A stretch of 64,000 bases of DNA, from assembly GCA_000004695.1 (NCBI GenBank), contig CM000150.2, forward strand, positions 3,968,001 to 4,032,000, read 5' to 3'. Source of the DNA: Dictyostelium discoideum (lineage: Eukaryota). The notes under the pieces are model-generated. The model made no database searches, was not told the origin of the DNA, and saw nothing but the letters and a program-made list of their open reading frames with translations. Positions 1 to 59,243 of the stretch are shown piece by piece (position 1 is the stretch's first letter; the number at the start of each line of letters is the position of its first letter). Position numbers and translations under genes: made by a program.

Positions 1-3000
1 CACTACCAAAAGTATATTCAATATCAATTTCACACAATGGAAACTCTTTTAATAATTGATTAAATTTCTCTAAAACATTATTTGATGAATGAAATGTGGT
101 TCCATTGTAATCTGCAAAACCGCTTGAAAAATCTAATATTCTAAATACCATTTTTTCATTTACAAATGGTACAAGTGATTGCTTAATAATTGTACCTACT
201 AAAATATCATTTTGTCCTTTTTCTTGTTGGTAAAGTGATTCGAATGTTTGTGGTGGTAAAATTAATGAATCCTTTGATTGAAGGTAGGTGGAATATAATT
301 CATTTGTTGGTGCTTCAATTTTTAATGAATCTTGAATTGGTGTTAATGAAGTACATGCTGCATTATCGATTTCAATTAATACAGTACCATCTTCTAACAT
401 TACTACAATAGATGCAAAGTAAGAATCACCCATTTTTGCATTTAATGATGAATAAACATATACGTTTGTATGTTGATCCCTTGCTGATGGTATATTTGAT
501 GAATATAGATTAAAACCTTCAATTCTATCGAAAACCAATTGACAATGTTCATCAACTAAACCAATCATACCATGTAAACAACAATCTAAAATTGAAGAGT
601 TGAAAAATGACTTTTGATCTGGTAAATGTTTTGGAAGTTCTAATGAAACCACTGATAATGAACAATTATCACCTAAATAACACATCGATACAGCTTGAAA
701 CATTCCACTATATGTTAAACCAGTTTTTAACTTTATGTGGTCATATAAATCTTCTTTTGTCAATTTGGTTAAATTGCAACGTTTTTCAATCAAATCTTTA
801 ATATTGTATTTTTGATTGAATATTTTTAAAGACTTTTCACCATTGTGTTTAAATAATTGAAAATTACCAAACGATGATTGAATCCATTCATTCTTTTTTT
901 GATCTTTAAAATGGAATAATACTTTATATTCTGTTTTTCCAGTTGGATAAATGTTTGTTTGTAAACAATGATTTACTGAATCATCTGTAAAAATAAATGG
1001 AGTACTAAATTCCAATGTACTAATAGTTATATCTTGTGATGGATAAATTTTTAATAAATTATCAATATAACCACAACCTGGGAAATAGAATTTCCCTTTT
1101 ACAACATGACCTTTTAGATATTGGAATGGTTTTCTCTTTATGTTTATAAATGTTTGATAAGATTTTACAAATGGTGAATCAGTAATTGAATTACCTAATA
1201 TATCAATTGGTGGACCTGTTAAATAATAATTCTCATAGAGTGAATTAATTTTCCAAAATTGTTTTTCATCCCATTGGTATAGTGGTAATTTATGAGTTGG
1301 TACTATTGATCTATTTATATTTTCAAATTGACATTTAAAGTTTATATTATACCCATTCTGACAATATAATTGAGAAATGGTTTGTCTTATCTCTTTAACA
1401 TCATTCTTTTTCTTGTGAAGTGGTGAATAAATTGAAATACTATCACCTTTTCCAAAGTAACTTGAATCTTTTGGTATCATTTGTTTTAAATAAAATTGTA
1501 AAGTTGGATGAGGAGCCAATTCAATAAAAACAATATCAGTTCCCAGTTGATTATTTTCTATATGTTTGTATAGATTTTCAATTGTTTGAGTAAAGTTCAC
1601 TGATTTTAAAATATTTTCATAAGTATATTTTGGTGAATATGGAGTAGTTTTATAATCAAATAAATTTGTTGTTACTGTAGAAAATATTGGTATTTCCGAT
1701 TCTTTGGATTTATAGTCCAATGAAAGGATATATTCTTTAATTGCTTTTTGACTTGATGTATGGAAAGATGATAATGAACCTAACATTGATGTAAATTCAC
1801 CTTTACTTTTTAATTCTTCTGAAATTTTATTTAGTTGATCCTCTTTTCCTCCAATTACAATTGATGTTGGTGAATTATAACATGAAATTTCTACATCAGG
1901 ATATCTTGATGAAAATTGTTCAATAAACTTTTCAGGTGAAATATTAATTGATAACATTCTACCACAACCTGTTGTTGTACTCTGGGCTATTGATCTATGA
2001 TAAATTAAATAACATTCAGTTTCTAAATCAATCATACCTGAACAATAAGCGGCAGTAACTTCACCAAGACTATGACCAACTATAAATGTTGGTTTAATAC
2101 CCCAGTGTTTATATAATTCGAATAGTGAAATTTGTACCATACAAATTGCAGGTTGTGCTAATGCTGGATTATGAATTGATTTCATATCATCTACCGGAAT
2201 GGATCTTAATTTCTCTAATATCGAGAAACCATAATATTTTGATAATTTATTATCCAACATATCCATAGTTTTTCTAAATATTGGTTCATTTTTATATAAT
2301 TCCAATGCCATTGTATTATATTGTGAACCTTGACCACAAAATACCATAATAATAATTGGATTCTTTGATTTTATTGAAATGTTTGATGATGTTGTTTTGA
2401 TTGTTTTAATATTATTATTAGTTGATATTAAATTATCTTTAAAATCATTCCAATTTGAACCTAAAATAACTGAACGTTGGTATAATGAATTTGATTTACT
2501 CATTATTTGTTCCTTTACAAAATCATTAAACTCCATAGTTTCTTGATTAAAATTTGAAATTAAAGATTGATATTGTTCTAATGATTTAGTTGAATTTGCT
2601 GAAAATGGAATTAAATATTCAATATTGTTCTGATGTTGTTGTTGTTTTAAATTTATTGTATTATTATTATCACTGCTACTATTATGATTATAATTGAAAT
2701 CTTTTAAAATAATACAAACGTTTGAACCTGTAACTCCAAAATTATTAACAGCCATGGTAATTTCTTTTTTTGGGAATGGAGTTGGTTCTACCACTACTTT
2801 TAAATTCCATTCATTAAATTTTATTAATGGATTTGGTGTTTTAAAATGTAAATTTGGTATAAAGTATCTATTTTTAAACATTAAACAGCATTTAACCAAT
2901 GATGCAATACCAGAAGATGCTTCACAATGACCAATCATTGATTTAAACGAACCTATTAATAATGGATTTTCTTTTGAATGATTGTCTTTGAAAATACTTG

Positions 3001-3369
3001 AAATACCTTCTACTTCAATTGGATCACCAACTGGAGTACCTGTACCATGTGCTTCAACATAGTCTACATCTTTTGCATTGATATTACCAGATGATAATGC
3101 CATTTTAATATTTTCAGCTTGTGATTGTGCTGATGGTGAATAGAAATTTGATTTATCACTATATCCATTACCATCAACATTTGAACTTGTACCTTTAATA
3201 ACACAATAAACTCTATCACCATCAATAATTGCTTGGTTTAAATCTTTTAATAATAATACCCCAATACATTCACTTTTTACATAACCATCTGCATTTGCAT
3301 CAAAACTTTTACATCTTCCGTCTTTACTTAACATATTCATATATGAAAATGATTTTGGGGTATTTGCAT
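1..3369 (-). CDS. Type I polyketide synthase, exon 2 (partial; runs off the window 5' edge). Encodes the rest of the KS domain, then an acyltransferase domain and downstream linker.
   Basis: Minus-strand frame is open across the whole region. AG acceptor at 3370-3371, phase 1, joins exon 1. KS sequence ...[43 protein letters not shown] active-site motif [14 protein letters not shown] at ~2040-2100 on the minus strand. Confidence 0.85.
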
Positions 3370-3374
3370 CTATT

Positions 3375-3407
<33 letters not shown>

Positions 3408-3462
3408 TTTATTTTAATTAATATATGTTCCATTATTTTTTTTTTTTTTTTTTTCTACTTAC

Positions 3463-4087
3463 CAAAAATTAAACTTGTACCACCAACAATTGACATTTTA
3501 GAGTTTCCTTCAATGATAGATTTACAACCTAAAACCACAGCATTTGATGATGACGAACAAGCTGTATCTATTGTTATTGATGGACCATGAAAATCAAAAA
3601 TGTTTGAGACACGATTTGATGATGAATGTGATGATGATGAAAATATGTTGGTTTGAATTGAATCGATAGTTCTATTTAAATCTCTATATTCGTGAGTTGT
3701 ATTCCCAATGAAAACAGAGGTATTTGAACCGCGTAAATTAATTGGATCAATCATTGCATCTTCAATGGCTTCCCATGTACATTTTAAAAGTAAACGTTGT
3801 TGTGGATCTATTGCAGTTGCCTCTGGTGGACTTATACCAAAGAATAAAGGATCGAATGATTTAACTTCATCCATTGGTAATAAACCACCATATCTATTAT
3901 TAATCTCGCCCAATTTGTTGAAATTATCACTCCATCTTTCATTAGTTTCAATAATACCATCATAACCATTAACTAATTCTTTCCAAAGTTCACTTGGATT
4001 ACCTAAACTCTTGCCACTACCACCACCTGGTAATCTAAACCCAATTCCAATAATCCCAATACCATTATTTTCTTCTTTTAAAATCAT
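3463..4087 (-). CDS. Type I polyketide synthase, exon 1 (N-terminus, start of ketosynthase domain).
   Basis: ORF-track minus [25 protein letters not shown]... with the DTACSSS KS active-site Cys. Ends at a GTAAGT donor (phase 1). Intron 3370-3462 is a poly-A/T tract. Confidence 0.85.
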
Positions 4088-4236
4088 AATTTATTTTTTA
4101 AATTAATAACTATAAATGATTTATTGGATAATATATGTTAATAATTATATAATTAATTAATTTTTTTTTTTTTTTTTTTTTCATTTTATATGAAAAAATA
4201 AAAATAAAAAATTAAAAATATTTTATATCACCAGAC

Positions 4237-4330
4237 AGACAGATAGGTAGGTAGGTAGGTAGGTAGGTAGGTAGGTAGGTAGGCAGACAGGTAGGTAGGT
4301 AGGTAGGCAGACAGGTAGGTAGGTAGGCAG
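4237..4330. repeat. (TAGG)n tetranucleotide microsatellite, ~20 units, interrupted twice by CAGACAGG.
   Basis: Direct reading: taggtaggtagg... between the PKS start and the TBC gene 3' end. Confidence 0.9.
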
Positions 4331-4661
4331 ACACATTCATTAAAATCTATTTAAATAAAACAATCTAAGATGTTTATAATATTAAACTGTAAAAAAAAAA
4401 AAGTTTGGAAAAAAAAAAAAATAAAAAATAAAAGAGAACAGATTATGGTGTTTAGGAGCATTCTTCGAAGGATAAAAAAAAAATAATAATAATAGAGAAC
4501 AGATTATTTAATAAACATTTTTTCTAATAAAAAAAAAAAAAATAAAAAGAGAACAGATAAAATTTTAAATCCAAAAAATCTCAAAAAAAAAACAAAAAAA
4601 AAAAAAAAAAAACAATTTCTCCCGAAATTAATTTTTAATTGTTGTTATTAACAAACAATCC

Positions 4662-4693
<32 letters not shown>

Positions 4694-4851
4694 TATATAT
4701 TTTATTGTTCTTTTTCTTTATTCTCTCTTTAATTGTTTCTACTTTATTTTTTTTTTTTATTTTTTTTTTTTTTTTAATTTTTTTTTTTTTTTTTGTTTTT
4801 TTTTTTTTTTTTTTCTTGGTAGGGAAATAAAAAAAAAAATTATTAAAAATA

Positions 4852-5532
4852 TTACTTTTTAATAATATTATTATTTAAATTTATATTATTACTTTTTAAA
4901 TGTGATTGAGCTTCTTCATATAATGATCTATAATAGAAAGCAGTAGAGAATAAACTTTCAATATCACGTTCTTCCCAATTTTGAGTTGGAGGTTTTTGAA
5001 GGAAAATCATAATGTCAGGGAAATCTCTTTGCTTCAATTCATCAGACCATAAAACCAAGAAAGCGGCACAAACATAAACATGAAAAACACTAAATCCCTC
5101 CTTTTCACTTAGATAAGTATCCCACATACGTATTACCAATGGAAAAGGTATCTCTCTCATGAGTAAACAATTCATCCAACGAAATGCAAACGTAATGAAT
5201 TGAGCGTCTTGATCGGCCAAATGGGCACATAAACTATTGTTAATCTTCTCTAGTAATCCTTTTAAACTTGCCAACATTCTTTGTATACCAGGTTGAGCAA
5301 ATGTATAATGATCTTGAATACCATCCAATAATTTCGTTAAACACCAATAACTATCTGCTTCAACCATTGCCAATATGGTCGAATCAATTTGATCCACTTG
5401 ACAATTGGCAACATCTTCAACATACTCTGATAAAAATACCCAAATAAATGGTGTTGCTAAATCATTAATACCTTGAACATATCCTGTTGATGGATGCCTA
5501 ATACCCCATAAATATAAAATTCTTTCTAAAAT
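4852..5532 (-). CDS. TBC-domain Rab GTPase-activating protein, exon 3 (C-terminal half of the TBC domain).
   Basis: Minus frame reads ILERILYLWGIRHPSTGYVQGINDLATPF...MDQIDSTILAMVEADSYWC..., i.e. the Rab-GAP YxQ-type motif region. Phase-0 acceptor at 5533-5534. Confidence 0.8.
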   Translation of the reverse strand: MLERILYLWGIRHPSTGYVQGINDLATPFIWVFLSEYVEDVANCQVDQIDSTILAMVEADSYWCLTKLLDGIQDHYTFAQPGIQRMLASLKGLLEKINNSLCAHLADQDAQFITFAFRWMNCLLMREIPFPLVIRMWDTYLSEKEGFSVFHVYVCAAFLVLWSDELKQRDFPDIMIFLQKPPTQNWEERDIESLFSTAFYYRSLYEEAQSHLKSNNINLNNNIIKK

Positions 5533-5564
5533 CTAATAATAATTATAATTAATATTTTTAAAGA

Positions 5565-5671
<107 letters not shown>

Positions 5672-5689
5672 AATTATAATAATACAAAC

Positions 5690-6517
5690 ATCTTGAATTA
5701 AAGGTTGTTGAAAAAATGGTACACCAGGATTTGTTCTTGGTACATCCATTTGAATTTGTTTTAAAGTTCTTCTATCGGATTCACCTCTTTTCTCATCGGA
5801 AGTATAATATTGTGGTAAACCATCACGATATTCTTTTCTTTTTCTCTCTAAATGTTCATCTCTTCTTTCACAATTTGAGGGTAAATAACCTAATAGTATC
5901 TTCCAAGACATTGGTCTATATCTATCTGGTATACCACGCCATCCTAACGTTTTTAAACTTTCCATATCTACATGTATACCTGTATTTAATAATTTCTCAA
6001 ATTTCTTTATTCTATTACTATTTATATTTTGTATATTATTTTGTTGTTGTTGCTGTTGCTGTTGCTGCTGTAATGATGATGATGATGATGATGTATCAAT
6101 ACCACCATTACTTGAATTTAATGATGATGATAATGAATTTGAATTCGATGCTGATAAATGTGTACTACTATTACTATGACCAATTACTGATGTATTTATT
6201 GATGATGATGATAATGATAAATGTGATAAATTATTCTCTAATGTATTTAAATTTGATGCTGATGATGATGTTGTCATCTTTGATGTAGTTGTAGTTGTGG
6301 TGGTTGTTTGATTGTTATTATTATTATTATTGTTATTGTTATTGTTATTATTGTTATTGTTATTATTGTTATTATTGTTACTATCTATATTTGTTGTCGT
6401 TATTTGGGTTTGTGAATTTACAGTTGATAAATAAGGTGAGGTTGATGATGATGAAAATTGACCATGATTAAATATAACACTACTATCATAATCTTTTTTC
6501 CTATTTGGTATCATATT
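5690..6517 (-). CDS. TBC-domain RabGAP, exon 2: N/Q/T/S-rich low-complexity region, then the TBC N-terminal arginine-finger region.
   Basis: ORF-track 5558..6514 minus protein carries ...GWRGIPDRYRPMSWKILLGYLP...IQMDVPRTNP (RxxxW and IxxDxxR TBC motifs). Donor GTTTGT follows ...PLIQD (phase 0). Acceptor ATAATAG|AAATATG at 6518-6519. Confidence 0.8.
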
Positions 6518-6870: not shown

Positions 6871-8380
6871 AAAAAGAAAAAACTTTTATATATATATGTG
6901 ATGTTATTTATTATTTCAAAAACAAAAAAAAAAAAAAAATATAAACAAAAAATAAAAAACAAAAAAACAAAAATAAAAAAAAGATAAAAAAAATAAAAAA
7001 CAAGAAAAAAAAAAAAAAACTAGTTTGTAAAATCTACTTTGTAAATAAATTTATATTTTCTTTTTTTGAAAAATGTAACATATGTGCAAAGTGTTGTGTA
7101 TTTTTTTTTTTTTAAAAAAAAAAAAATTTTGATTGTTATTTTGTTTTATTTTATTTTTTCCCTTCCTTATTACCTAAATTATAATTATCTGTAAAAAACA
7201 GCGTGCCTTTTTAAAAATATTGTTAGGCAGTTTGTTTGGTGTGCAAACAAAAAAAAAAAAAAAATAAAAAAAAATAAAAAAAAAAAAAATAAAAAAAAAA
7301 AATTAATTTTTTTCAAAATATCCTTTTTTTTTTTTTAAAACTTAAATTTTTTTTGTTCTATTTTTATTTTTAAATTCTATTTTTATTTTTAATTAATTAT
7401 AATAAATAAAATAATTTAAATTATTATGTAAAAGATTATGGATAATTATTTTAAATTTATTTATGAAAAAAAAAAAATAAAAAAAATAATAAAAATAAAA
7501 AAAATTAAAAAAAATTAAAAAAAAAAATTGTGGGAAATTTGGTGGTTCAAAAATAAGCATTAATATTTTAAAAAATTAAATTTTAATTTGCAATTTAGTA
7601 AATGAATCAATTAATTAATCAATTAATGAATGATTGAGTGGATGAATTAATTAATTAATTAATTATATATCGTTATAATTTACTGATGATGATAAATTCG
7701 TATCGATTTTTAATGGATATGTTACACCTTTTTTCATAGTTTTATATTTATAAATTAATATACCACTCTCTCCTCTATCTCTCTCTTTATCTATATCTAT
7801 ATTATTCTTAATAAAATCCTATTCTAATTAATTTTTTTTTTTTTTTTAAAAAATTAAATTGCACCACACATATAAAAAAAAACATCAAAAAAAAAAAAAG
7901 ATCTCTTTTGAATTATTTTTTTTATTTTAACTTTCATTTTTTATTTTTATTTTTTTTATTACTCATCTTTATATTCATTAATTGTATGTATACATAGTTG
8001 ATGTGGGGAAATTTCAAAAAAATTACACTACAACAAATAACTTACCTTGGTGATTCTAGGTGGATCAAATGGAATATATTCATCCGTTGTTTTTCTTCAA
8101 AAATAAAAAAATAATTACAAAGTAATTAAATTTTTTTATTTTTTTTATTTTTTTTTTTAAACAATAATTTAAATTTATTAATTCTTAATATGTATAGATA
8201 AATAGAGCACTCAAAAATACTCAAAATGATATAAAAATTAAAAAAAATGAATGTAATCATTCTGTTTTTTTGAATTTTTTTTTTTTTTTTCAAATCAAAA
8301 TAAATTTTATTTTTTTTTTTATTTTTTGGTCTAAACTAGTTGGCATGAGGAGTTTTAAATATATTGAAATACTGATGATT

Positions 8381-53580: not shown

Positions 53581-53604
53581 TAATGTGTTTTTAAGAACTA
53601 CCAT
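53151..53604 (-). CDS. F-box/JmjC/APH protein, exon 1 (poly-N, then F-box-like motif).
   Basis: ...LGALSILEDQILLNVVFNEFTCSELLKYQCVSPAFYILLGDDRLWKD (F-box). Donor CCAG|GTAAGT (phase 1) joins TTCTTTAG|AT at 53078-53079. Confidence 0.7.
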
Positions 53605-53623
53605 TTTATTTTATTTATTATTT

Positions 53624-53656
<33 letters not shown>

Positions 53657-54200
53657 CAATTTATTTAAATTTTTATATAAAAATGAAGTTTTAAAATTAT
53701 ATAGTTTTTTTGAATTAATAAGTAAAAAAAAATAATATTCTTTTATTATTTTTATTATTTTTATTATTTAAAAAATAAAATAAAAAAAAAAAATAAAAAA
53801 ATTCTTTAAAATTTGAAATGTTCCACCTGAGAAAATGGGTCAAATTTTATTAATTTTTTTTTTTTGAAAAAAATATCTTTTAATTTTTATGATAATTAGG
53901 TTCCAACCGATTATTATGATGTATGCACAAATTTTTTAAATGTAAAAAAAAAAAAAAAAAATTAATAAAAAAAAAATAATAATAAAAAAAAATTAATTTT
54001 TTGATATTTTTTTCAAAATAAAAGTTTTTTTTTTTTTTTTTTTTTTTTTATCATTATCAATTTTATTTTCAAGTAAGTGAGAACTTTTTTATGTTAAATT
54101 TCATACTTTAATACTACTTTATAAAATATAAAAAACTAATCGATTTTCTTTAAATTTCATTTTTTTTTTTTTTTTTTTTTTTTTAATCCTATCTTTCTCT

Positions 54201-54237
<37 letters not shown>

Positions 54238-54272
54238 CTTTCTTTTAATTTTAAATTAAACTCAAATAAAGG

Positions 54273-54319
54273 ATGTCAGGTTATCCAAACCAATATCCAC
54301 ATGGTTATCCACAACAAGG
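54273..54319 (+). CDS. YPPQ-repeat/KGFK-tail small protein A, exon 1 (MSGYPNQYPHGYPQQG).
   Basis: ATG at 54273; GG|GTAAGT donor, phase 2. Not in the ORF track. Confidence 0.55.
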
Positions 54320-54379
54320 GTAAGTTTATTTATATTAATTTTTATTTATATTAATTTTATCATTTTAATTTATTAACAT

Positions 54380-54419
<40 letters not shown>

Positions 54420-54435
54420 TTTAAATAATTCTTAG

Positions 54436-54573
54436 ATACCCACCACAACAAGGTTACCCACCACAACAAGGTTATCCACCACAAGGTTATCCACCACAAC
54501 AAGGTTACCCACCACAAGGTTATCCACCACAACCAGGTTACCCAATGCAACCAGGTTATCCAATGCAACCAGG
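54436..54573 (+). CDS. YPPQ/KGFK protein A, exon 2 ((G)YPPQQGYPPQQGYPPQGYPPQQGYPPQGYPPQPGYPMQPGYPMQPG).
   Basis: Seven tandem GYPPQ(Q) units; both splice sites in phase 2; GG|GTATGT donor. Confidence 0.6.
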
Positions 54574-54716
54574 GTATGTAAATTTAAACAATTGTTTTTA
54601 TTTTATCTTATCTATCCCCCCTCTTCCCCCTCTTCCTTATCTTATTTTATTTTATTTTATTTTATTTTTTTTTTTTTTACCAATATTAATATTTATTTTA
54701 CTTTTAAATAATGTAG

Positions 54717-54909
54717 TGTTGTAGTTCAACCAAATATGTACCCACAAGGTCATCACACTGCTTATCCAGTTGGTTATGGTCATCATGGTAAATTCAAACA
54801 TAAGGGTTACAAGAAACATCACAAGAAACATAAGGGATTCAAAGGTTTCAAGAAAGGATTCAAAAAAGGATTCAAAGGTTTCAAGAAAACTTTCAAATAC
54901 AAACATTAA
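54717..54909 (+). CDS. YPPQ/KGFK protein A, exon 3 (VVVQPNMYPQGHHTAYPVGYGHHGKFKHKGYKKHHKKHKGFKGFKKGFKKGFKGFKKTFKYKH*).
   Basis: Frame continuous with exons 1-2. Basic KGFK-repeat tail also found in gene C. Confidence 0.6.
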
Positions 54910-54976
54910 GATCTCTTTTTAAAAGAAATGGGTTTTGTTTTATTCTTTTTGTATTTTAATAAATATCAATTAATCC

Positions 54977-55007
<31 letters not shown>

Positions 55008-55305
55008 ACAAACGAGATTGTATATTATCTTTTTTTTTTTAAAAAAAAAAAAAAAAACAGTTTGAATTTTTATTTTAATAAATTCCATCTTTGGAATTGT
55101 TTTTACCTTTTGATGATAAAAAAAAAAAAAAAAAACATTGAAAATTTTATTAATTTAATAACTCCATCTTTGGAATTGTTTTTACCAATCTATAATAATT
55201 AATTTTTTATTATTATATTTTTTTCATTACTTTTTTTTGTTTTTTTTTTTTGTTTTTTTTTAATATTTAAACATTCAACAAAAGATTTTAAATACTTATT
55301 TCTTT

Positions 55306-55345
<40 letters not shown>

Positions 55346-55400
55346 AAACCAAATAAATTAAATAATAGATAAATAATTAATTAAATTTTACAACATTAAA

Positions 55401-55426
55401 ATGTCAAATCCACCATCCATTCCAGT
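55401..55426 (+). CDS. YPPQ/KGFK-related small protein B, exon 1 (MSNPPSIPV).
   Basis: ATG at 55401; donor GT|GTATGT, phase 2. Confidence 0.45.
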
Positions 55427-55620
55427 GTATGTACCAAAAAAAAAAATTAAAAAATAAAAAAAAAAAAATAATTTACTAATACAAAAATTTAAATAAAAAT
55501 TATAGAAACACTGGGTTTGTTTTCAAAAAAAAAAAATTTTAAATTTAACATAATATTATTAAATAATTTAATTATTTTAACATTGTATTATTGATATAAT
55601 TTTATTTTTAAAATTAATAG

Positions 55621-55804
55621 ATTAATTACACCAGATATGTATCCTCATGGTAAACATTCAAGTACTGGATTAACAGGTTCTCACCATAATAAAGGAAAAG
55701 GAAAAGGAAAAGGAAAAATAATGGGAAAAGGTTTTAAACATAAAAGAGGTTTAAGTTTTAAACATAATCCAATCTCAAAAGGAATTAAAAAAATTTTCAA
55801 ATAA
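55621..55804 (+). CDS. Small protein B, exon 2 (LITPDMYPHGKHSSTGLTGSHHNKGKGKGKGKIMGKGFKHKRGLSFKHNPISKGIKKIFK*).
   Basis: Shares the MYP[QH]G[HK]H and basic KG-repeat tail with genes A and C. Acceptor AATAG at 55619-55620. Confidence 0.45.
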
Positions 55805-56275
55805 AGAAGTTCATCATTTTGATTTTATAAAAAATAAATAAATAAATAAATTCATTTTTTTTTACTCAATTTATAATTTTTTTTTAATTTTTTTTTAATT
55901 TTTTTTTTGTTTTTAATAATTAGTAATTAGTAATTTTAATACTCATATTTAAAATGTTTAAGATAATTAAAAAAAAAAATTAAAATAAAATAAAATAAAT
56001 TTTTATTTTATTATTGTTATTATTTAAACATAAACAATTGTAAATTTATTTTTTTTTATTTTTTTTTTTTTCAAAGAAATGACACAAAAAGGTACCTTTA
56101 GGGTTTTCAATTAATTTTTTTTTTTTTTAAATTAATTTTCTAATTTTTTTTTTTTTTTTAAATTTTTTTTATTTTTTTTTAAATTAAAAAAAAAAAAAAA
56201 AAAAAAAAGATTTTTGTACTTATTCACACAAAATTAATTTTTATTAAACTTATATATTTCAAACAATTAAATAAA

Positions 56276-56310
56276 ATGTATCCATATAATAATCAAGGTT
56301 ATCCACCAGG
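56276..56310 (+). CDS. YPPQ/KGFK protein C, exon 1 (MYPYNNQGYPPG).
   Basis: ATG at 56276; GG|GTAAGT, phase 2. Confidence 0.5.
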
Positions 56311-56404
56311 GTAAGTAAAAATTATTTTTATTTTTTTTTTTTTTTTATCTTTCTGATACAAGTTCATTTATTAATTTATTTATTCTTTCTTTCTTTAATT
56401 ATAG

Positions 56405-56434
56405 CTACATTCCACCACAAGTTGGCATGCCAGG
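56405..56434 (+). CDS. Protein C, exon 2 ((G)YIPPQVGMPG), a 30-nt micro-exon.
   Basis: AG|C...CCAGG|GTAAAT; phase 2 on both sides. Confidence 0.45.
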
Positions 56435-56517
56435 GTAAATAGCAATTATTTTTGCCTTTTTTTTTTTTATCCATTAAATCTTTATTAACACAAAGTTTAT
56501 TATTTCTTTAAATTTAG

Positions 56518-56553
56518 CTACATTCCACCTCCACCACAAATGGGTATGCCAGG
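56518..56553 (+). CDS. Protein C, exon 3 ((G)YIPPPPQMGMPG), a 36-nt micro-exon paralogous to exon 2.
   Basis: AG|C...CCAGG|GTAAAT. Introns 2 and 3 are near-duplicates (each begins GTAAATAGCAATTATTTTT). Confidence 0.45.
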
Positions 56554-56616
56554 GTAAATAGCAATTATTTTTTTTTTTTTTTTCTCTTTACTCTTAAAAC
56601 CATTTGTATTGACACA

Positions 56617-56650
<34 letters not shown>

Positions 56651-56670
56651 CTACTCTTTCTTTAATCCAG

Positions 56671-56845
56671 TTATATTCCACCACCTGTAGGTGTAGTTCC
56701 AATGCCACAAATGGGTATGCCAGGATGTCCACCAATGGTAGTTCCAATGCAACCACTTCCAGGACAATACCCAATGGGTGCTCCTTATCCATACAGTGGA
56801 GGCTATGGCTATGGTTATCGTGGTCACAAATTTAAGAAATTTAAA
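56671..56845 (+). CDS. Protein C, exon 4 ((G)YIPPPVGVVPMPQMGMPGCPPMVVPMQPLPGQYPMGAPYPYSGGYGYGYRGHKFKKFK).
   Basis: Acceptor CCAG|T completes Gly; donor AAA|GTTTGT, phase 0. Confidence 0.5.
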
Positions 56846-56959
56846 GTTTGTATTTAAAATAATAAAAAAAAAAAAAAAAATCAACAAATAGATTTTAAAA
56901 TACTAACTTTTTTTTTTTTTTTATTAAAAATAATAAAAATAATATTAAATATTAAATAG

Positions 56960-56998
56960 GGTTATAAAGGTTTCAAAAAAGGATACTATCGTTATTAG
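56960..56998 (+). CDS. Protein C, exon 5 (GYKGFKKGYYRY*).
   Basis: Acceptor AAATAG|GG; stop TAG 56996-56998. Confidence 0.45.
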   Translation, partial: GYKGFKKGYYRY

Positions 56999-57281
56999 AA
57001 TAATTAAAACTCTACTTTTTTTGTAAACATATTAATTCCTTTTTTTTTTTTTTTACATTTTCAAAACTTCAAAACTAAAATAAATTGTAAATTAACTTTA
57101 TATGACTCTTAAACTAAAAAACTATCACTTTTGTTTTGGTTTTTTTTTTTTTTTTTTTAATTTTTTTTTTTTTTTGATTTTTTTTAAAATCGAAAAAGAG
57201 GACAATATTATCGAATATATTGAAATAATCCTTTCTAATTAAAAAAAAAAAAGTATTTTTAATTATTTATCTATTTTTCCC

Positions 57282-57336
<55 letters not shown>

Positions 57337-57653
57337 ATAATAATAATAATAATAAAAAATAATAACAATAAAAAAAAAAATAAAAATGAAAATTAGTTTT
57401 TGAAATCTTTTTTTTATTTTATTTTATTATATCCTATTTTATTTTATTTTTTTATTATTATTTTAATAAAAAGAATTTTGATATCAAAATTATTATTAAA
57501 AAAATCATTAAAAAAAAAAAATCTTTTTTTTAAACTTTTTTGGTGCATATGCAATCAAAGTCCGACAGGATAGGAGTTACTTTTTTTATTTTTTTTTTTT
57601 TTTATTTTTTTTTTTTATTAATTTTTTCATTAAAATTTTTCAAAAATAAAAAA

Positions 57654-58323: not shown

Positions 58324-58385
58324 AATGTGCAGACCAGAAGAGTTATTCGTAGATAGAATTAGTCCACATTTTATTTGTCCGATTG
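58324..58385 (+). CDS. RING / TRAF-type zinc finger / CBM20 (starch-binding) protein, exon 1.
   Basis: MCRPEELFVDRISPHFICPIG; donor G|GTAAGT, phase 1. Confidence 0.6.
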
Positions 58386-58552
58386 GTAAGTAATAGGTTA
58401 TATAATATTTAGTGTACATTGATTATATATTCCTAATAACAATAATTTCATATTATCAACTACAACTATAAATTCAACCACAATTACAACACAAATGATA
58501 ATGATAATAATGATAATAATGATAATAATGATAATAATAACCAAATAAATAG

Positions 58553-58833
58553 GAGGAGGTGTTATTGAAGATCCAGTTGTAACACCATGTGGTCATACAT
58601 TTTGTAACCCGTGTTTAATAAAATGGTTACAATCTAGGAGACAATGTCCGACTGATAGATTACCAGTTACAGATAAACAGTTGATTCAAAATTGGTTAGT
58701 TTATTATTACACTTCCGAACTTACTGTTAGATGCGATCATTATAATAAAGGTTGTTTATGGACGGGTAAGTGGTGTGTATTAGGTAGTCATTTAACACAA
58801 TGTCAAGCTGCATTTTCAAAGATTAGATTTTGG
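58553..58833 (+). CDS. RING/TRAF-ZnF/CBM20 protein, exon 2 (rest of C3HC4 RING, then TRAF-type zinc finger).
   Basis: (G)GGVIEDPVVTPCGHTFCNPCLIKWLQSRRQCPTDRLPVTDKQLIQNWLVYYYTSELTVRCDHYNKGCLWTGKWCVLGSHLTQCQAAFSKIRFW; donor TGG|GTAAAT, phase 0. The exact acceptor (58551/52 vs 58554/55) is ambiguous but both give Gly. Confidence 0.7.
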
Positions 58834-58964
58834 GTAAATAATCATCATCATTATTAATTATTAATTATTATTTATTAATTAATTAATTAATTTAAAATAA
58901 CCAATTAAATAACTTTTTTATTTTTTATTTTTTTATTTATTTTATTATTTTTTGTATTTTTTAG

Positions 58965-59243
58965 TTAAAATATCATGTTCCATTTGGACAACAAATTAGA
59001 GTTACAGGTAATTGCGATCAATTGGGTAATTGGGACCCAAAGAAATCATTCCCATTAAAATTTTTGCAAGGTGATACATGGGAAGGTGAAATTATTTTGG
59101 CACAAAGTGGAAGAATAGAATATAAATATTGTATTAGTTATTATGATACTGGTGAATTGGTGTATTGGGAAGCTGGTCCAAATAGAGTTATTTTAATTTC
59201 TGGTTCTTCAATTTATAGAAGAGATATCTTTAAAAATCCTTAA
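58965..59243 (+). CDS. RING/TRAF-ZnF/CBM20 protein, exon 3 (family-20 carbohydrate-binding module).
   Basis: LKYHVPFGQQIRVTGNCDQLGNWDPKKSFPLKFLQGDTWEGEIILAQSGRIEYKYCISYYDTGELVYWEAGPNRVI matches the CBM20 consensus (V.F.V.....G..V.V.G....LG.W.......L........W...V.LP.G..IEYKY.......V.WE.G.NR). Confidence 0.8.
   Translation, partial: LKYHVPFGQQIRVTGNCDQLGNWDPKKSFPLKFLQGDTWEGEIILAQSGRIEYKYCISYYDTGELVYWEAGPNRVILISGSSIYRRDIFKNP

Follow-up and report, generated by a model that had tools for sequence, protein, structure and literature searches.

Background

In MARCKS the effector domain is unstructured and has Phe residues scattered through a polybasic cluster; it binds acidic membranes by charge and Phe insertion. 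The hisactophilins of Dictyostelium discoideum, which are small (about 13 kDa), abundant, His/Lys-rich and cytosolic, link membrane and actin and set a precedent for an association with membrane or actin that depends on charge. XYPPX repeats, on the other hand, are found in the C-terminal domain of comitin and in the C-terminal tail of squid rhodopsin, and D. discoideum annexin VII (synexin) has an N-terminal GYPPQ(Q) repeat; the corresponding Pfam entry, PF02162, is a low-complexity repeat class and not a family of common descent. In ALIX, annexin A7/A11 and PLSCR3, proline-rich regions are type-1 ligands of ALG-2, the type-1 motif being PPYP or PXYP followed by YP after four residues (PMC3397542, PMC5037681), and AnxA7/A11 carry the type-1-like sequence PGYPPPPGGYP (PMC5037681).

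Here we describe three small genes (A, B and C) in a 64,000-nucleotide stretch of D. discoideum chromosome 1 (the window), flanked by jcdI (DDB_G0270006) and a RING/CBM20 gene (DDB_G0270014). Their products share a plan in which a Tyr/Pro repeat of XYPPX type, present in A and C only, precedes a conserved core and a Lys/Gly/Phe(/His/Tyr) tail. The best overall explanation, to which we would assign a probability of roughly 0.6, is that they form an annotated tandem orphan family that is expressed, conserved and disordered, with a putative cytosolic adaptor role.

Three small spliced genes

An earlier note, made from the DNA alone, had proposed three consecutive spliced genes on one strand, and models rebuilt from the sequence agree with it: all three lie on the plus strand, introns are GT-AG throughout and all frames close. 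The products are of 125, 69 and 104 aa, A thus falling outside the proposed size of ~65-110 aa. The features, in window positions, are as follows.

Gene A, 54273-54319, 54436-54573, 54717-54909, plus strand: 3 exons, 125 aa
A exon 1, 54273..54319, plus strand: MSGYPNQYPHGYPQQG; donor ACAAGG/gtaagt, phase 2; L001 identity 100%
A exon 2, 54436..54573, plus strand: GYPPQ(Q)/GYPMQP repeat array with tandem periodicity of 18/33 nt; donor ACCAGG/gtatgt, phase 2
A exon 3, 54717..54909, plus strand: VVVQPNMYPQGHH core, Lys/Gly/Phe/His tail, stop codon; L001 identity 99%
Gene B, 55401-55426, 55621-55804, plus strand: 2 exons, 69 aa
B exon 1, 55401..55426, plus strand: MSNPPSIP; donor CCAGT/gtatgt, phase 2
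B exon 2, 55621..55804, plus strand: LITPDMYPHGKH core, KGKGKGKGK run, KGFKHKRGLSFKHNPISKGIKKIFK tail, stop codon
Gene C, 56276-56310, 56405-56434, 56518-56553, 56671-56845, 56960-56998, plus strand: 5 exons, 104 aa
C exon 1, 56276..56310, plus strand: MYPYNNQGYPPG, with a conserved PPGY motif; donor CCAGG/gtaagt, phase 2
C micro-exon 2, 56405..56434, plus strand: 30 nt, YIPPQVGMPG; L001 identity 100%
C micro-exon 3, 56518..56553, plus strand: 36 nt, YIPPPPQMGMPG; copy of micro-exon 2 including both flanking intron ends
C tandem duplication, 56387..56583, plus strand: unit of ~113-119 bp comprising intron 3' end, micro-exon and intron 5' end
C exon 4, 56671..56845, plus strand: Pro/Met/Val-rich region, QYPMGAPYP core, GYGYGYRG stretch, start of basic tail; phase-0 donor
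C exon 5, 56960..56998, plus strand: GYKGFKKGYYRY, stop codon; L001 identity 100%

The introns were said to lie mostly in phase 2, which holds for six of the seven (the exception, in phase 0, is the final intron of C), and almost always after CCAGG, which does not: that sequence precedes four, with CAAGG and CCAGT preceding one each, and a Gly codon is split by five of the seven. The peptide quoted for the basic tail, HKGYKKHHKKHKGFKGFKKGFKKGFKGFKK, is found in A. As the note had remarked, the genes are invisible to a listing of open reading frames, there being no plus-strand ORF of at least 60 aa at the locus; the minus-strand ORFs at 54652-54906, 56565-56792 and 56651-56887 were judged spurious. 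An Rfam search of positions 53600-57600 gave no match.

Conservation and coding capacity

The window was compared with six other Dictyostelium assemblies (L001, L003, L004, L006, L007 and D. firmibasis). Against L001, exons are 94-100% identical (87% for exon 2 of B) and introns 47-83%. Across the other genomes reading frames and splice sites are kept and exon indels are multiples of three, the repeat number in exon 2 of A included; B is intact, with whole-codon indels, in L001, L003, L004, L006 and L007 and has decayed in D. firmibasis. Substitutions at codon positions 1, 2 and 3 number 43:35:140, a pattern that excludes a minus-strand gene. The dN/dS ratio is 0.04-0.06 for A (dS 0.3-0.6), 0.17-0.37 for B and 0.08-0.24 for C (dS at least 0.1), and the 62-residue tail of A is identical in the D. 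firmibasis protein. Moreover, independent annotations of five other assemblies contain the same structures, with products of exactly the projected lengths, and in a sister assembly the independently annotated P0069 is identical to the five-exon projection of C. Taken together, these comparisons indicate that the three genes are real, protein-coding, under purifying selection and spliced as first proposed.

A tandem family with exon turnover

In BLASTP comparisons run with composition correction and low-complexity filtering off, A matched C at E=4e-20 and B at E=5e-10, and all three products have a V..P.(M/Q)YPxG core followed by a K/G/F tail. A, B and C thus form a tandem paralogous family. 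The earlier note had given every member an N-terminal repeat, which is true of A and C, while B has none.

The duplication of micro-exons together with their flanking introns in C, also pointed out there, is borne out by two matches: positions 56411-56464 and 56530-56583 (exon end and intron start) are 89% identical over 54 nt, and positions 56387-56416 and 56500-56529 (intron end and exon start) are 90% identical over 30 nt. The number of micro-exons differs by species, with two in D. discoideum strains and L001, one in L003/L004, which lack micro-exon 3, and none in D. firmibasis. The duplication is both real and lineage-specific. Change in the family comes chiefly from slippage of repeats by whole codons, from exon-plus-intron units being duplicated, gained or lost at Pro-Gly codon pairs (CCA GG/N) and from decay of a member (B in D. 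firmibasis). Calling it rapidly evolving is consequently apt for repeat number and exon structure but not for substitutions, which are under purifying selection (see the values for A above).

A profile of the tail matched only B and the C orthologue in an HMMER scan of 1.84 billion representatives, and again only these two in a 5.8-billion word-indexed database. With C as the query the orthologue of the sister species was the sole match, and full-length A retrieved only unrelated GYPPQ-rich proteins through low-complexity matches. In these libraries, which evidently lack several known members, no relative turned up beyond the species group of D. discoideum, to which the family would seem to be restricted.

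Annotation and expression

The question raised earlier, whether the family is annotated, can be answered directly for B, whose spliced product matches DDB_G0270010 exactly (EAL72355.1, XP_646468.1, Q55CL3). Upstream lies JcdI (DDB_G0270006, Q55CL5), and the downstream RING protein exactly matches DDB_G0270014 (EAL72357). The DDB_G, EAL/GenBank and UniProt numberings each leave one free slot on either side of B (0270008 and 0270012), and Kin et al. 2018 list 0270006, 0270008, 0270010, 0270012 and 0270014 consecutively, the middle three having no product name. From these three numbering systems and the gene order, and not from a sequence match, we infer that A is DDB_G0270008 and C is DDB_G0270012. 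The exact sequences of A and C had no match in the protein collection, nor had the overlapping minus-strand ORFs, an absence that is uninformative because the annotated orthologues of A and C from other assemblies are missing from it too; for the same reason the notion that the reference strain AX4 lacks annotation for A and C was abandoned. Thus, the genes are already in the reference annotation as uncharacterised entries and are not new. The three gene IDs and UniProt accessions are not mentioned in the main texts of the literature searched, and Sillo 2008, Kjellin 2019 and Singh 2017 do not list the genes in their supplements.

Expression values were taken by gene ID from published stranded RNA-seq (PMC6198379), A and C being linked by position. 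A is found in all four cell types at about 346-1485 TPM, highest in spores; C ranges over 173-5825 TPM, with about 5,500 in stalk; and B stands at 38-83 TPM in stalk and does not exceed 3.4 anywhere else (PMC6198379). A and C are abundant as early as growth and the 0 h point of development, C being in the thousands at the start (PMC6198379). The developmental profile, which the earlier note had asked to be checked, is therefore one of stalk enrichment for C and B and of presence in all four cell types for A: expression is very high for A and C, and low and stalk-specific for B. Codon usage (TTC 7/7, CCA 23/23 and GGT 17/21 in A; TTT, GGA and AAA in B) agrees with these levels, high for A and low for B.

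Protein properties and possible roles

The products contain almost no acidic residues (D+E: 0 in A, 1 in B, 0 in C) and many basic ones (K+R: 18, 15 and 9), giving pI values of 10.0, 10.8 and 9.7, respectively, with GRAVY between -1.5 and -0.6. A and C have 16 Tyr each; Cys is absent from A and B and occurs once in C; His occurs 10 times in A and once in C. The last 40 residues of A hold 18 Lys, 7 Phe and 2 Tyr and are free of acidic residues. An AlphaFold2 model is devoid of secondary structure (pLDDT 57, pTM 0.11). A, B and C are accordingly predicted to be disordered and strongly positively charged, which fits the earlier description of disordered, cation-tailed peptides. By inspection, none of the N-termini (A, MSGYPNQYP / MSGYPNQYPHGYP; B, MSNPPSIPVLITPD; C, MYPYNNQGYP / MYPYNNQGYPPGY) holds a hydrophobic stretch of signal-peptide length. 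N-myristoylation and prenylation were rejected, position 2 not being Gly and a CaaX box being absent.

The role that we tentatively propose, possible if doubtful, is that of small disordered cytosolic adaptors. In this role the basic-aromatic tail would attach to polyanionic surfaces, acidic phospholipid membranes being the likeliest, through its charge and the insertion of Phe/Tyr, and the Tyr-Pro repeat might mediate docking or self-association in the manner of the N-terminal tails of annexin VII/A7/A11, possibly recruiting ALG-2-type penta-EF-hand proteins. Since B has no repeat, a mechanism based on it could not be general to the family.

One may also consider that the proteins bind nucleic acids or form condensates, a Tyr-rich, prion-like N-terminus and a Lys-rich tail driving phase separation with RNA or DNA through cation-pi contacts, either as a miniature FUS-like architecture or simply as basic proteins of the nucleolus or nucleus. 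The 16 Tyr and acid-free polycationic tails of A and C would suit this, as would the disordered model and an mRNA abundance appropriate for bulk scaffolds, and the KKHHKKHK-type runs resemble nuclear localisation signals. However, the Pfam scan found no RNA-binding domain, B has no Tyr-rich part, and the basic residue is Lys rather than Arg, Lys being the weaker partner in Tyr-cation interactions; we regard this explanation, in either variant, as unlikely.

More speculative, and in our view rather improbable, is that these are a hitherto unrecognised, clade-specific class of very abundant disordered polycations that couple Ca2+/penta-EF-hand signalling to membranes, which they would do through the annexin-VII-like Tyr-Pro repeat, or that build a cross-linked intracellular matrix in stalk cells, with Gln, Lys and Tyr cross-linked during the terminal vacuolisation and death of these cells. 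If true, this would account for C being among the most abundant stalk-cell mRNAs.

A role as cross-linkable cell-wall or spore-coat peptides had been suggested in the earlier note; the proteins would then be extracellular, Tyr/Lys-rich structural peptides cross-linked into the stalk or spore wall. The stalk enrichment of C and B, with C at about 5,500 TPM in stalk cells, is in its favour, and so is a content of Tyr, Lys and Gln suitable for dityrosine or Gln-Lys cross-linking; the XYPPX family of Pfam also includes mussel adhesive plaque proteins. Nevertheless, no N-terminus is hydrophobic or signal-peptide-like, on which ground we rejected a secreted wall protein, Pfam detects no Cys-rich or cellulose-binding repeats of the kinds that characterise coat and stalk matrix proteins in Dictyostelium, A and C are abundant already in growing cells and at 0 h, and none of the genes is spore-specific. 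A wall or spore-coat role is thus very unlikely.

Still more improbable, to a degree that leaves it little standing, are histatin-like peptides, cationic and with much His, Lys, Gly and Tyr, that would attack ingested bacteria or serve to bind metals or polyphosphate in acidic compartments. The tail of A (GHHGKFKHKGYKKHHKKHK...) is similar in composition, with 10 His and 18 Lys in the protein, and the organism eats bacteria, but C has only one His, a signal peptide or targeting signal is absent, the highest expression is in terminal cell types that do not feed, and the supplements of two papers on transcriptome responses to bacteria did not yield the genes. Finally, that the locus does not code on the plus strand at all, and consists of chance ORFs in low-complexity DNA, a non-coding transcript or minus-strand genes, can be dismissed as extremely improbable: minus-strand ORFs of 75-84 aa do overlap exon 3 of A and exon 4 of C, and the A and C proteins lack a match in the protein collection, but against this stand the third-position excess with plus-frame dN/dS far below 1, the conserved splice sites and whole-codon indels, a codon bias as in highly expressed genes, the exact match of B to an annotated plus-strand protein and the same structures in five independently annotated assemblies.

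What we describe is, then, an ordinary though unstudied family of small proteins, which opens no long-standing question and should be useful to annotators and orphan-gene researchers. In a major model organism A and C rank with the more abundant mRNAs, yet they are unnamed and go unmentioned in the main texts searched. As the whole family lies within 2.8 kb, a single deletion would remove all three genes. The locus also offers a compact example of disordered proteins in which repeat slippage and exon-plus-intron turnover go together with sequence under purifying selection.

Comparison with known systems

The resemblance of A to annexin VII, noticed earlier together with the lack of an annexin core, holds and is limited to the low-complexity repeat, of which A has about nine GYPPQ(Q)/GYPMQP units. 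In the Pfam scan of A, B and C the only match was a borderline one of A to PF02162 (19.2 bits against a gathering threshold of 19.0, E=0.0011), B and C giving no hit, and a PDB sequence search yielded only the squid rhodopsin tail (2z73), as the best hit of A, at E=0.08. In the literature searched 'Dictyostelium' and GYPPQ occurred together only in a paper on Dictyostelium comitin, whose repeats, like those of squid rhodopsin, are of the XYPPX type found in A. The unit of C, GYIPPP.. MGMPG, differs from the annexin VII-type repeat, and annexin VII, comitin and squid rhodopsin all lack the Lys/Gly/Phe tail of A, B and C. No annexin domain was hit in the three proteins at E up to 1, and 69-125 aa leave no room for the core of four annexin repeats; annexin membership was rejected. 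Likewise, (G)YPPQ(G) runs are common to the repeat of A and to plant glycine-rich and CYSTM proteins, NINE/TM2 and penta-EF-hand proteins, which match the low-complexity repeat only and have neither the MYPxG core nor the basic tail. The likeness to annexin VII-type repeats is compositional and no evidence of common descent.

Regarding ALG-2, A has a motif similar to that of the type-1 ligands: PGYPMQPGYP or PGYPPQQGYP occurs in A in five of seven genomes, with 1-3 PXYP-X4-YP matches, and in neither L003 nor L004; it resembles the PGYPPPPGGYP of AnxA7/A11, such matches being expected by chance in a GYP-rich repeat. YP-X4-YP is found in every A and C orthologue, the full type-1 motif in none of B or C, and the type-2 motif PxPGF is absent from the proteins.

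Hisactophilin is a folded, myristoylated beta-trefoil, whereas A, B and C are predicted to be disordered and carry no lipidation signal. Compared with MARCKS, the tail of A has no PKC-type Ser sites, a signal for N-terminal myristoylation is missing, residue 2 being Ser or Tyr, there is much Gly and His, and sequence homology is absent; in composition and in the predicted model, however, the tails of A, B and C are, like the MARCKS-type segment, unstructured, Lys-rich and interspersed with aromatic residues.

Gene models and existing annotation

Rebuilt from the sequence, the three small tandem genes (here A, B and C) have the following structures:

Gene A: exons 54273-54319, 54436-54573 and 54717-54909, + strand, 125 aa
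Gene B: exons 55401-55426 and 55621-55804, + strand, 69 aa
Gene C: exons 56276-56310, 56405-56434, 56518-56553, 56671-56845 and 56960-56998, + strand, 104 aa

The coordinates given in the earlier note, as well as the peptide that it quoted, were correct, and its size range of ~65-110 aa fits B and C but not A. The protein of A is laid out as MSGYPNQYPHGYPQQ(GYPPQQ...)GYPMQPGVVVQPNMYPQGHHTAYPVGYGHHGKFKHKGYKKHHKKHKGFKGFKKGFKKGFKGFKKTFKYKH; an N-terminal repeat had been ascribed to all three proteins but is missing in B, a minor error. In this window of ~22% G+C the coding structure at 54273-56998 becomes visible only once spliced: the + strand there lacks any ORF of 60 aa or more, and the minus-strand ORFs are only spurious, so the genes are indeed invisible to an ORF track. 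All seven introns are GT..AG, A+T-rich and 83-194 nt long, and five of them split a Gly codon. That nearly all lie in phase 2 directly after CCAGG holds for the phase (six of seven, the sole phase 0 intron being the last of C), but for the CCAGG in just four, with CAAGG and CCAGT preceding one intron each.

The B protein exactly matches "hypothetical protein DDB_G0270010" of D. discoideum AX4 (EAL72355.1, XP_646468.1, Q55CL3). The upstream neighbour is the JmjC gene jcdI (DDB_G0270006, Q55CL5), and the product of the downstream neighbour, a RING/CBM20 gene that we rebuilt at 58325-59243, exactly matches DDB_G0270014 (EAL72357.1). All three numberings leave a single free slot between jcdI and B (DDB_G0270008, EAL72354, Q55CL4) and another between B and the RING gene (DDB_G0270012, EAL72356, Q55CL2). 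Kin et al. 2018 (PMC6198379) tabulate expression for DDB_G0270006, DDB_G0270008, DDB_G0270010, DDB_G0270012 and DDB_G0270014 in consecutive rows, the middle three without product description. Since there is one slot on each side of B and the rows are consecutive, we strongly infer, by position and numbering rather than by sequence match, that A is DDB_G0270008 and C is DDB_G0270012. The protein collection contains no exact copy of the A or C protein, which is uninformative because it also lacks the orthologues annotated in other assemblies. The reference annotation and published expression tables already include all three genes, though without a name, family description or study.

Conservation across Dictyostelium assemblies

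The syntenic locus was taken from six other Dictyostelium assemblies: D. cf. discoideum GCA_054859235.1 (L001, with L005 being the same locus), D. firmibasis (L002) and four further ones (L003, L004, L006, L007). Between the window and D. cf. discoideum, the exons of A and C are 94-100% identical and exon 2 of B 87% (aligned bases), while introns, with gaps counted, are just 47-83% identical. In the other assemblies the splice dinucleotides are all conserved, exon indels are always whole codons, and annotated product lengths equal the projected ones exactly (124, 126, 117, 117, 125 and 127 aa for A; 102, 112, 104 and 104 aa for C), one annotated C orthologue (P0069) being identical to the projected protein. 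Substitutions at codon positions 1, 2 and 3 stand at 43:35:140 (window versus L001, L002 and L003), and dN/dS is 0.04-0.06 for A (at dS 0.30-0.62), 0.17-0.37 for B and 0.08-0.24 for C. Conserved splice sites, whole-codon indels, the codon-position ratio and low dN/dS bear out the proposal that these are real genes, spliced as coding units; on these comparisons a non-coding or minus-strand reading is effectively excluded.

Several observations concern the surrounding DNA. The region upstream of A (54000-54272, the promoter region) is 93% identical to D. cf. discoideum in aligned bases, compared with 66-82% for the introns of A, which suggests conserved regulatory sequence. A 19-nt element, TCCATCTTTGGAATTGTTT, occurs twice between A and B (55084-55102 and 55163-55181; chance expectation 0.02), both copies lying inside a 79-bp tandem repeat (55041-55186). 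L001, D. firmibasis, L003, L006 and L007 have exact copies of it in the corresponding place, and L004 one with a single mismatch, although the A+T-rich spacer around it diverges between genomes. The element has no match in Rfam; a role in regulation or at a 3' end is possible. At L006 3151-3633 and L007 3053-3538, between B and C, an insertion of ~1 kb includes an annotated 160/161-aa ORF, acidic at its C-terminus and without a Pfam match; it is missing from the window and L001-L004 and is thus a presence/absence polymorphism within the cluster. The 206-aa RING protein DDB_G0270014 shows 100% identity across the five assemblies returned for it, including L003 and L004, where dS of gene A is ~0.6; for a protein that is uncharacterised, such constraint is unusually strong.

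Protein features and family relationship

A and B share V(V/L)(V/I)xP(N/D)MYPxG(H/K)H followed by a K/G/F tail, and the counterpart of this core in C is (Q)YPMG..YP..GYG..GHKFKKFKGYKGFKKG. BLASTP, with composition correction and low-complexity filtering off, gives 4e-20 for A-C and 5e-10 for A-B, and together with the shared core and tail this upholds the view of a single family. No further copy was found elsewhere within the 64-kb window. The database search that had been proposed found B already annotated, and otherwise returned little: neither 5.8 billion clustered proteins nor a full HMMER profile scan of 1.84 billion representatives, libraries that miss known family members, yielded relatives beyond B and a C orthologue. 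The only PDB match was to a squid rhodopsin tail.

Asp and Glu together number 0 in A, 1 in B and 0 in C, the pI is 10.0, 10.8 and 9.7, respectively, and Pro plus Gly make up 35-42% of A and C and 25% of B. None of the three has a hydrophobic N-terminus, a Gly at position 2 or a CaaX box. A single-sequence AlphaFold2 model of a C orthologue, weak evidence in itself, has no secondary structure (pLDDT 57, pTM 0.11), in line with the composition. The proteins are probably abundant, cytosolic, disordered polycations.

Expression

The developmental profile, which the earlier note had proposed to examine, is available from Kin et al. 2018 (PMC6198379; TruSeq stranded libraries, strain AX2, HL5 medium), and is high for A and C, and low and chiefly in stalk for B.

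Expression in TPM (PMC6198379)
A (DDB_G0270008): cup 346-621, stalk 749-1183, spore 1399-1485, vegetative 396-436
B (DDB_G0270010): cup 1.7-3.4, stalk 38-83, spore <1, vegetative <0.2
C (DDB_G0270012): cup 1125-2300, stalk 5258-5825, spore 1363-1596, vegetative 173-187

Both B and C are in the stalk-specific gene list of that study, and in the Parikh 2010 time course reproduced there DDB_G0270012 falls from 3605 at 0 h to 709 at 16 h (PMC6198379). Codon usage is consistent with these levels, A using TTC (7/7), CCA (23/23) and GGT (17/21), and B using TTT, GGA and AAA.

Evolution of repeats, micro-exons and gene B

The earlier description of a rapidly evolving family built by micro-exon shuffling is half right. 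There is variation in the number of repeats and in exon structure, but substitutions are constrained: the repeat array of A differs by whole units in every genome, whereas the 62 residues of its tail are unchanged between D. discoideum, D. cf. discoideum and D. firmibasis. Together with both intron ends, the two micro-exons of C in the window make up a tandem duplication of ~113-119 bp, as had been noticed. Two are also present in L001, L006 and L007, one in L003 and L004, and none in D. firmibasis, where C has a 22-residue internal duplication in their place. In L003 (2397-2432) and L004 (2323-2358) gene A is split by one more intron, giving a micro-exon of 36 nt (YPMQPGYPMQPG) whose phase-2 CCAGG|gt boundaries match those of the micro-exons in C. 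The position CCA GG|gt keeps recurring simply because each repeat unit has a Pro-Gly codon pair there, and the phase recurs because duplicating any intron-bearing unit copies it.

In D. firmibasis, B is a remnant with in-frame stops (L002 ~7830-7950; ..LVNPELYPK*.., ..GLSFKKIPI..) and is therefore dispensable there; in D. discoideum, accordingly, B is expressed at a low level in stalk only and has a higher dN/dS.

Possible function

The observation of the earlier note is confirmed and its interpretation partly supported. We tentatively favour, at a probability of roughly one in four, that the proteins would act as small adaptors binding membranes or other polyanions, because their tails resemble basic-aromatic clusters and their repeats resemble the N-terminal tails of annexins. 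A scaffold for nucleic acids or condensates is a doubtful alternative. The secreted, cross-linkable peptide of cell wall or spore coat suggested earlier is improbable, as the proteins lack a signal peptide and the genes are expressed in growing cells; a histatin-like cationic peptide is very improbable, and that the genes are an artefact is scarcely credible. In practical terms, the gain is a clean account of an orphan family that is clade-restricted, highly expressed and removable in its entirety by one 2.8-kb deletion.

The favoured adaptor role draws on likenesses to two known systems. The archetype of basic-aromatic clusters that bind acidic membranes is the MARCKS effector domain, and the tails of this family are similar to such binders, above all that of A, with 18 Lys, 7 Phe, 2 Tyr and 5 His in 40 residues. 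In mammals, the N-terminal tails of annexins A7 and A11 act as type-1-like ligands for ALG-2, a penta-EF-hand protein; the motif is PXYP-X4-YP, and the sequence in AnxA7/A11 reads PGYPPPPGGYP (PMC5037681, PMC3397542). PGYPMQPGYP or PGYPPQQGYP is present in A in five of seven genomes, and the PPGY motif of C is kept in all seven. The resemblance of the GYPPQ repeat to the annexin VII N-terminus stands, with Pfam giving as its sole match a threshold-level XYPPX for A, and the Tyr-Pro repeats of the family are like the N-terminal tails of annexin VII/A7/A11.
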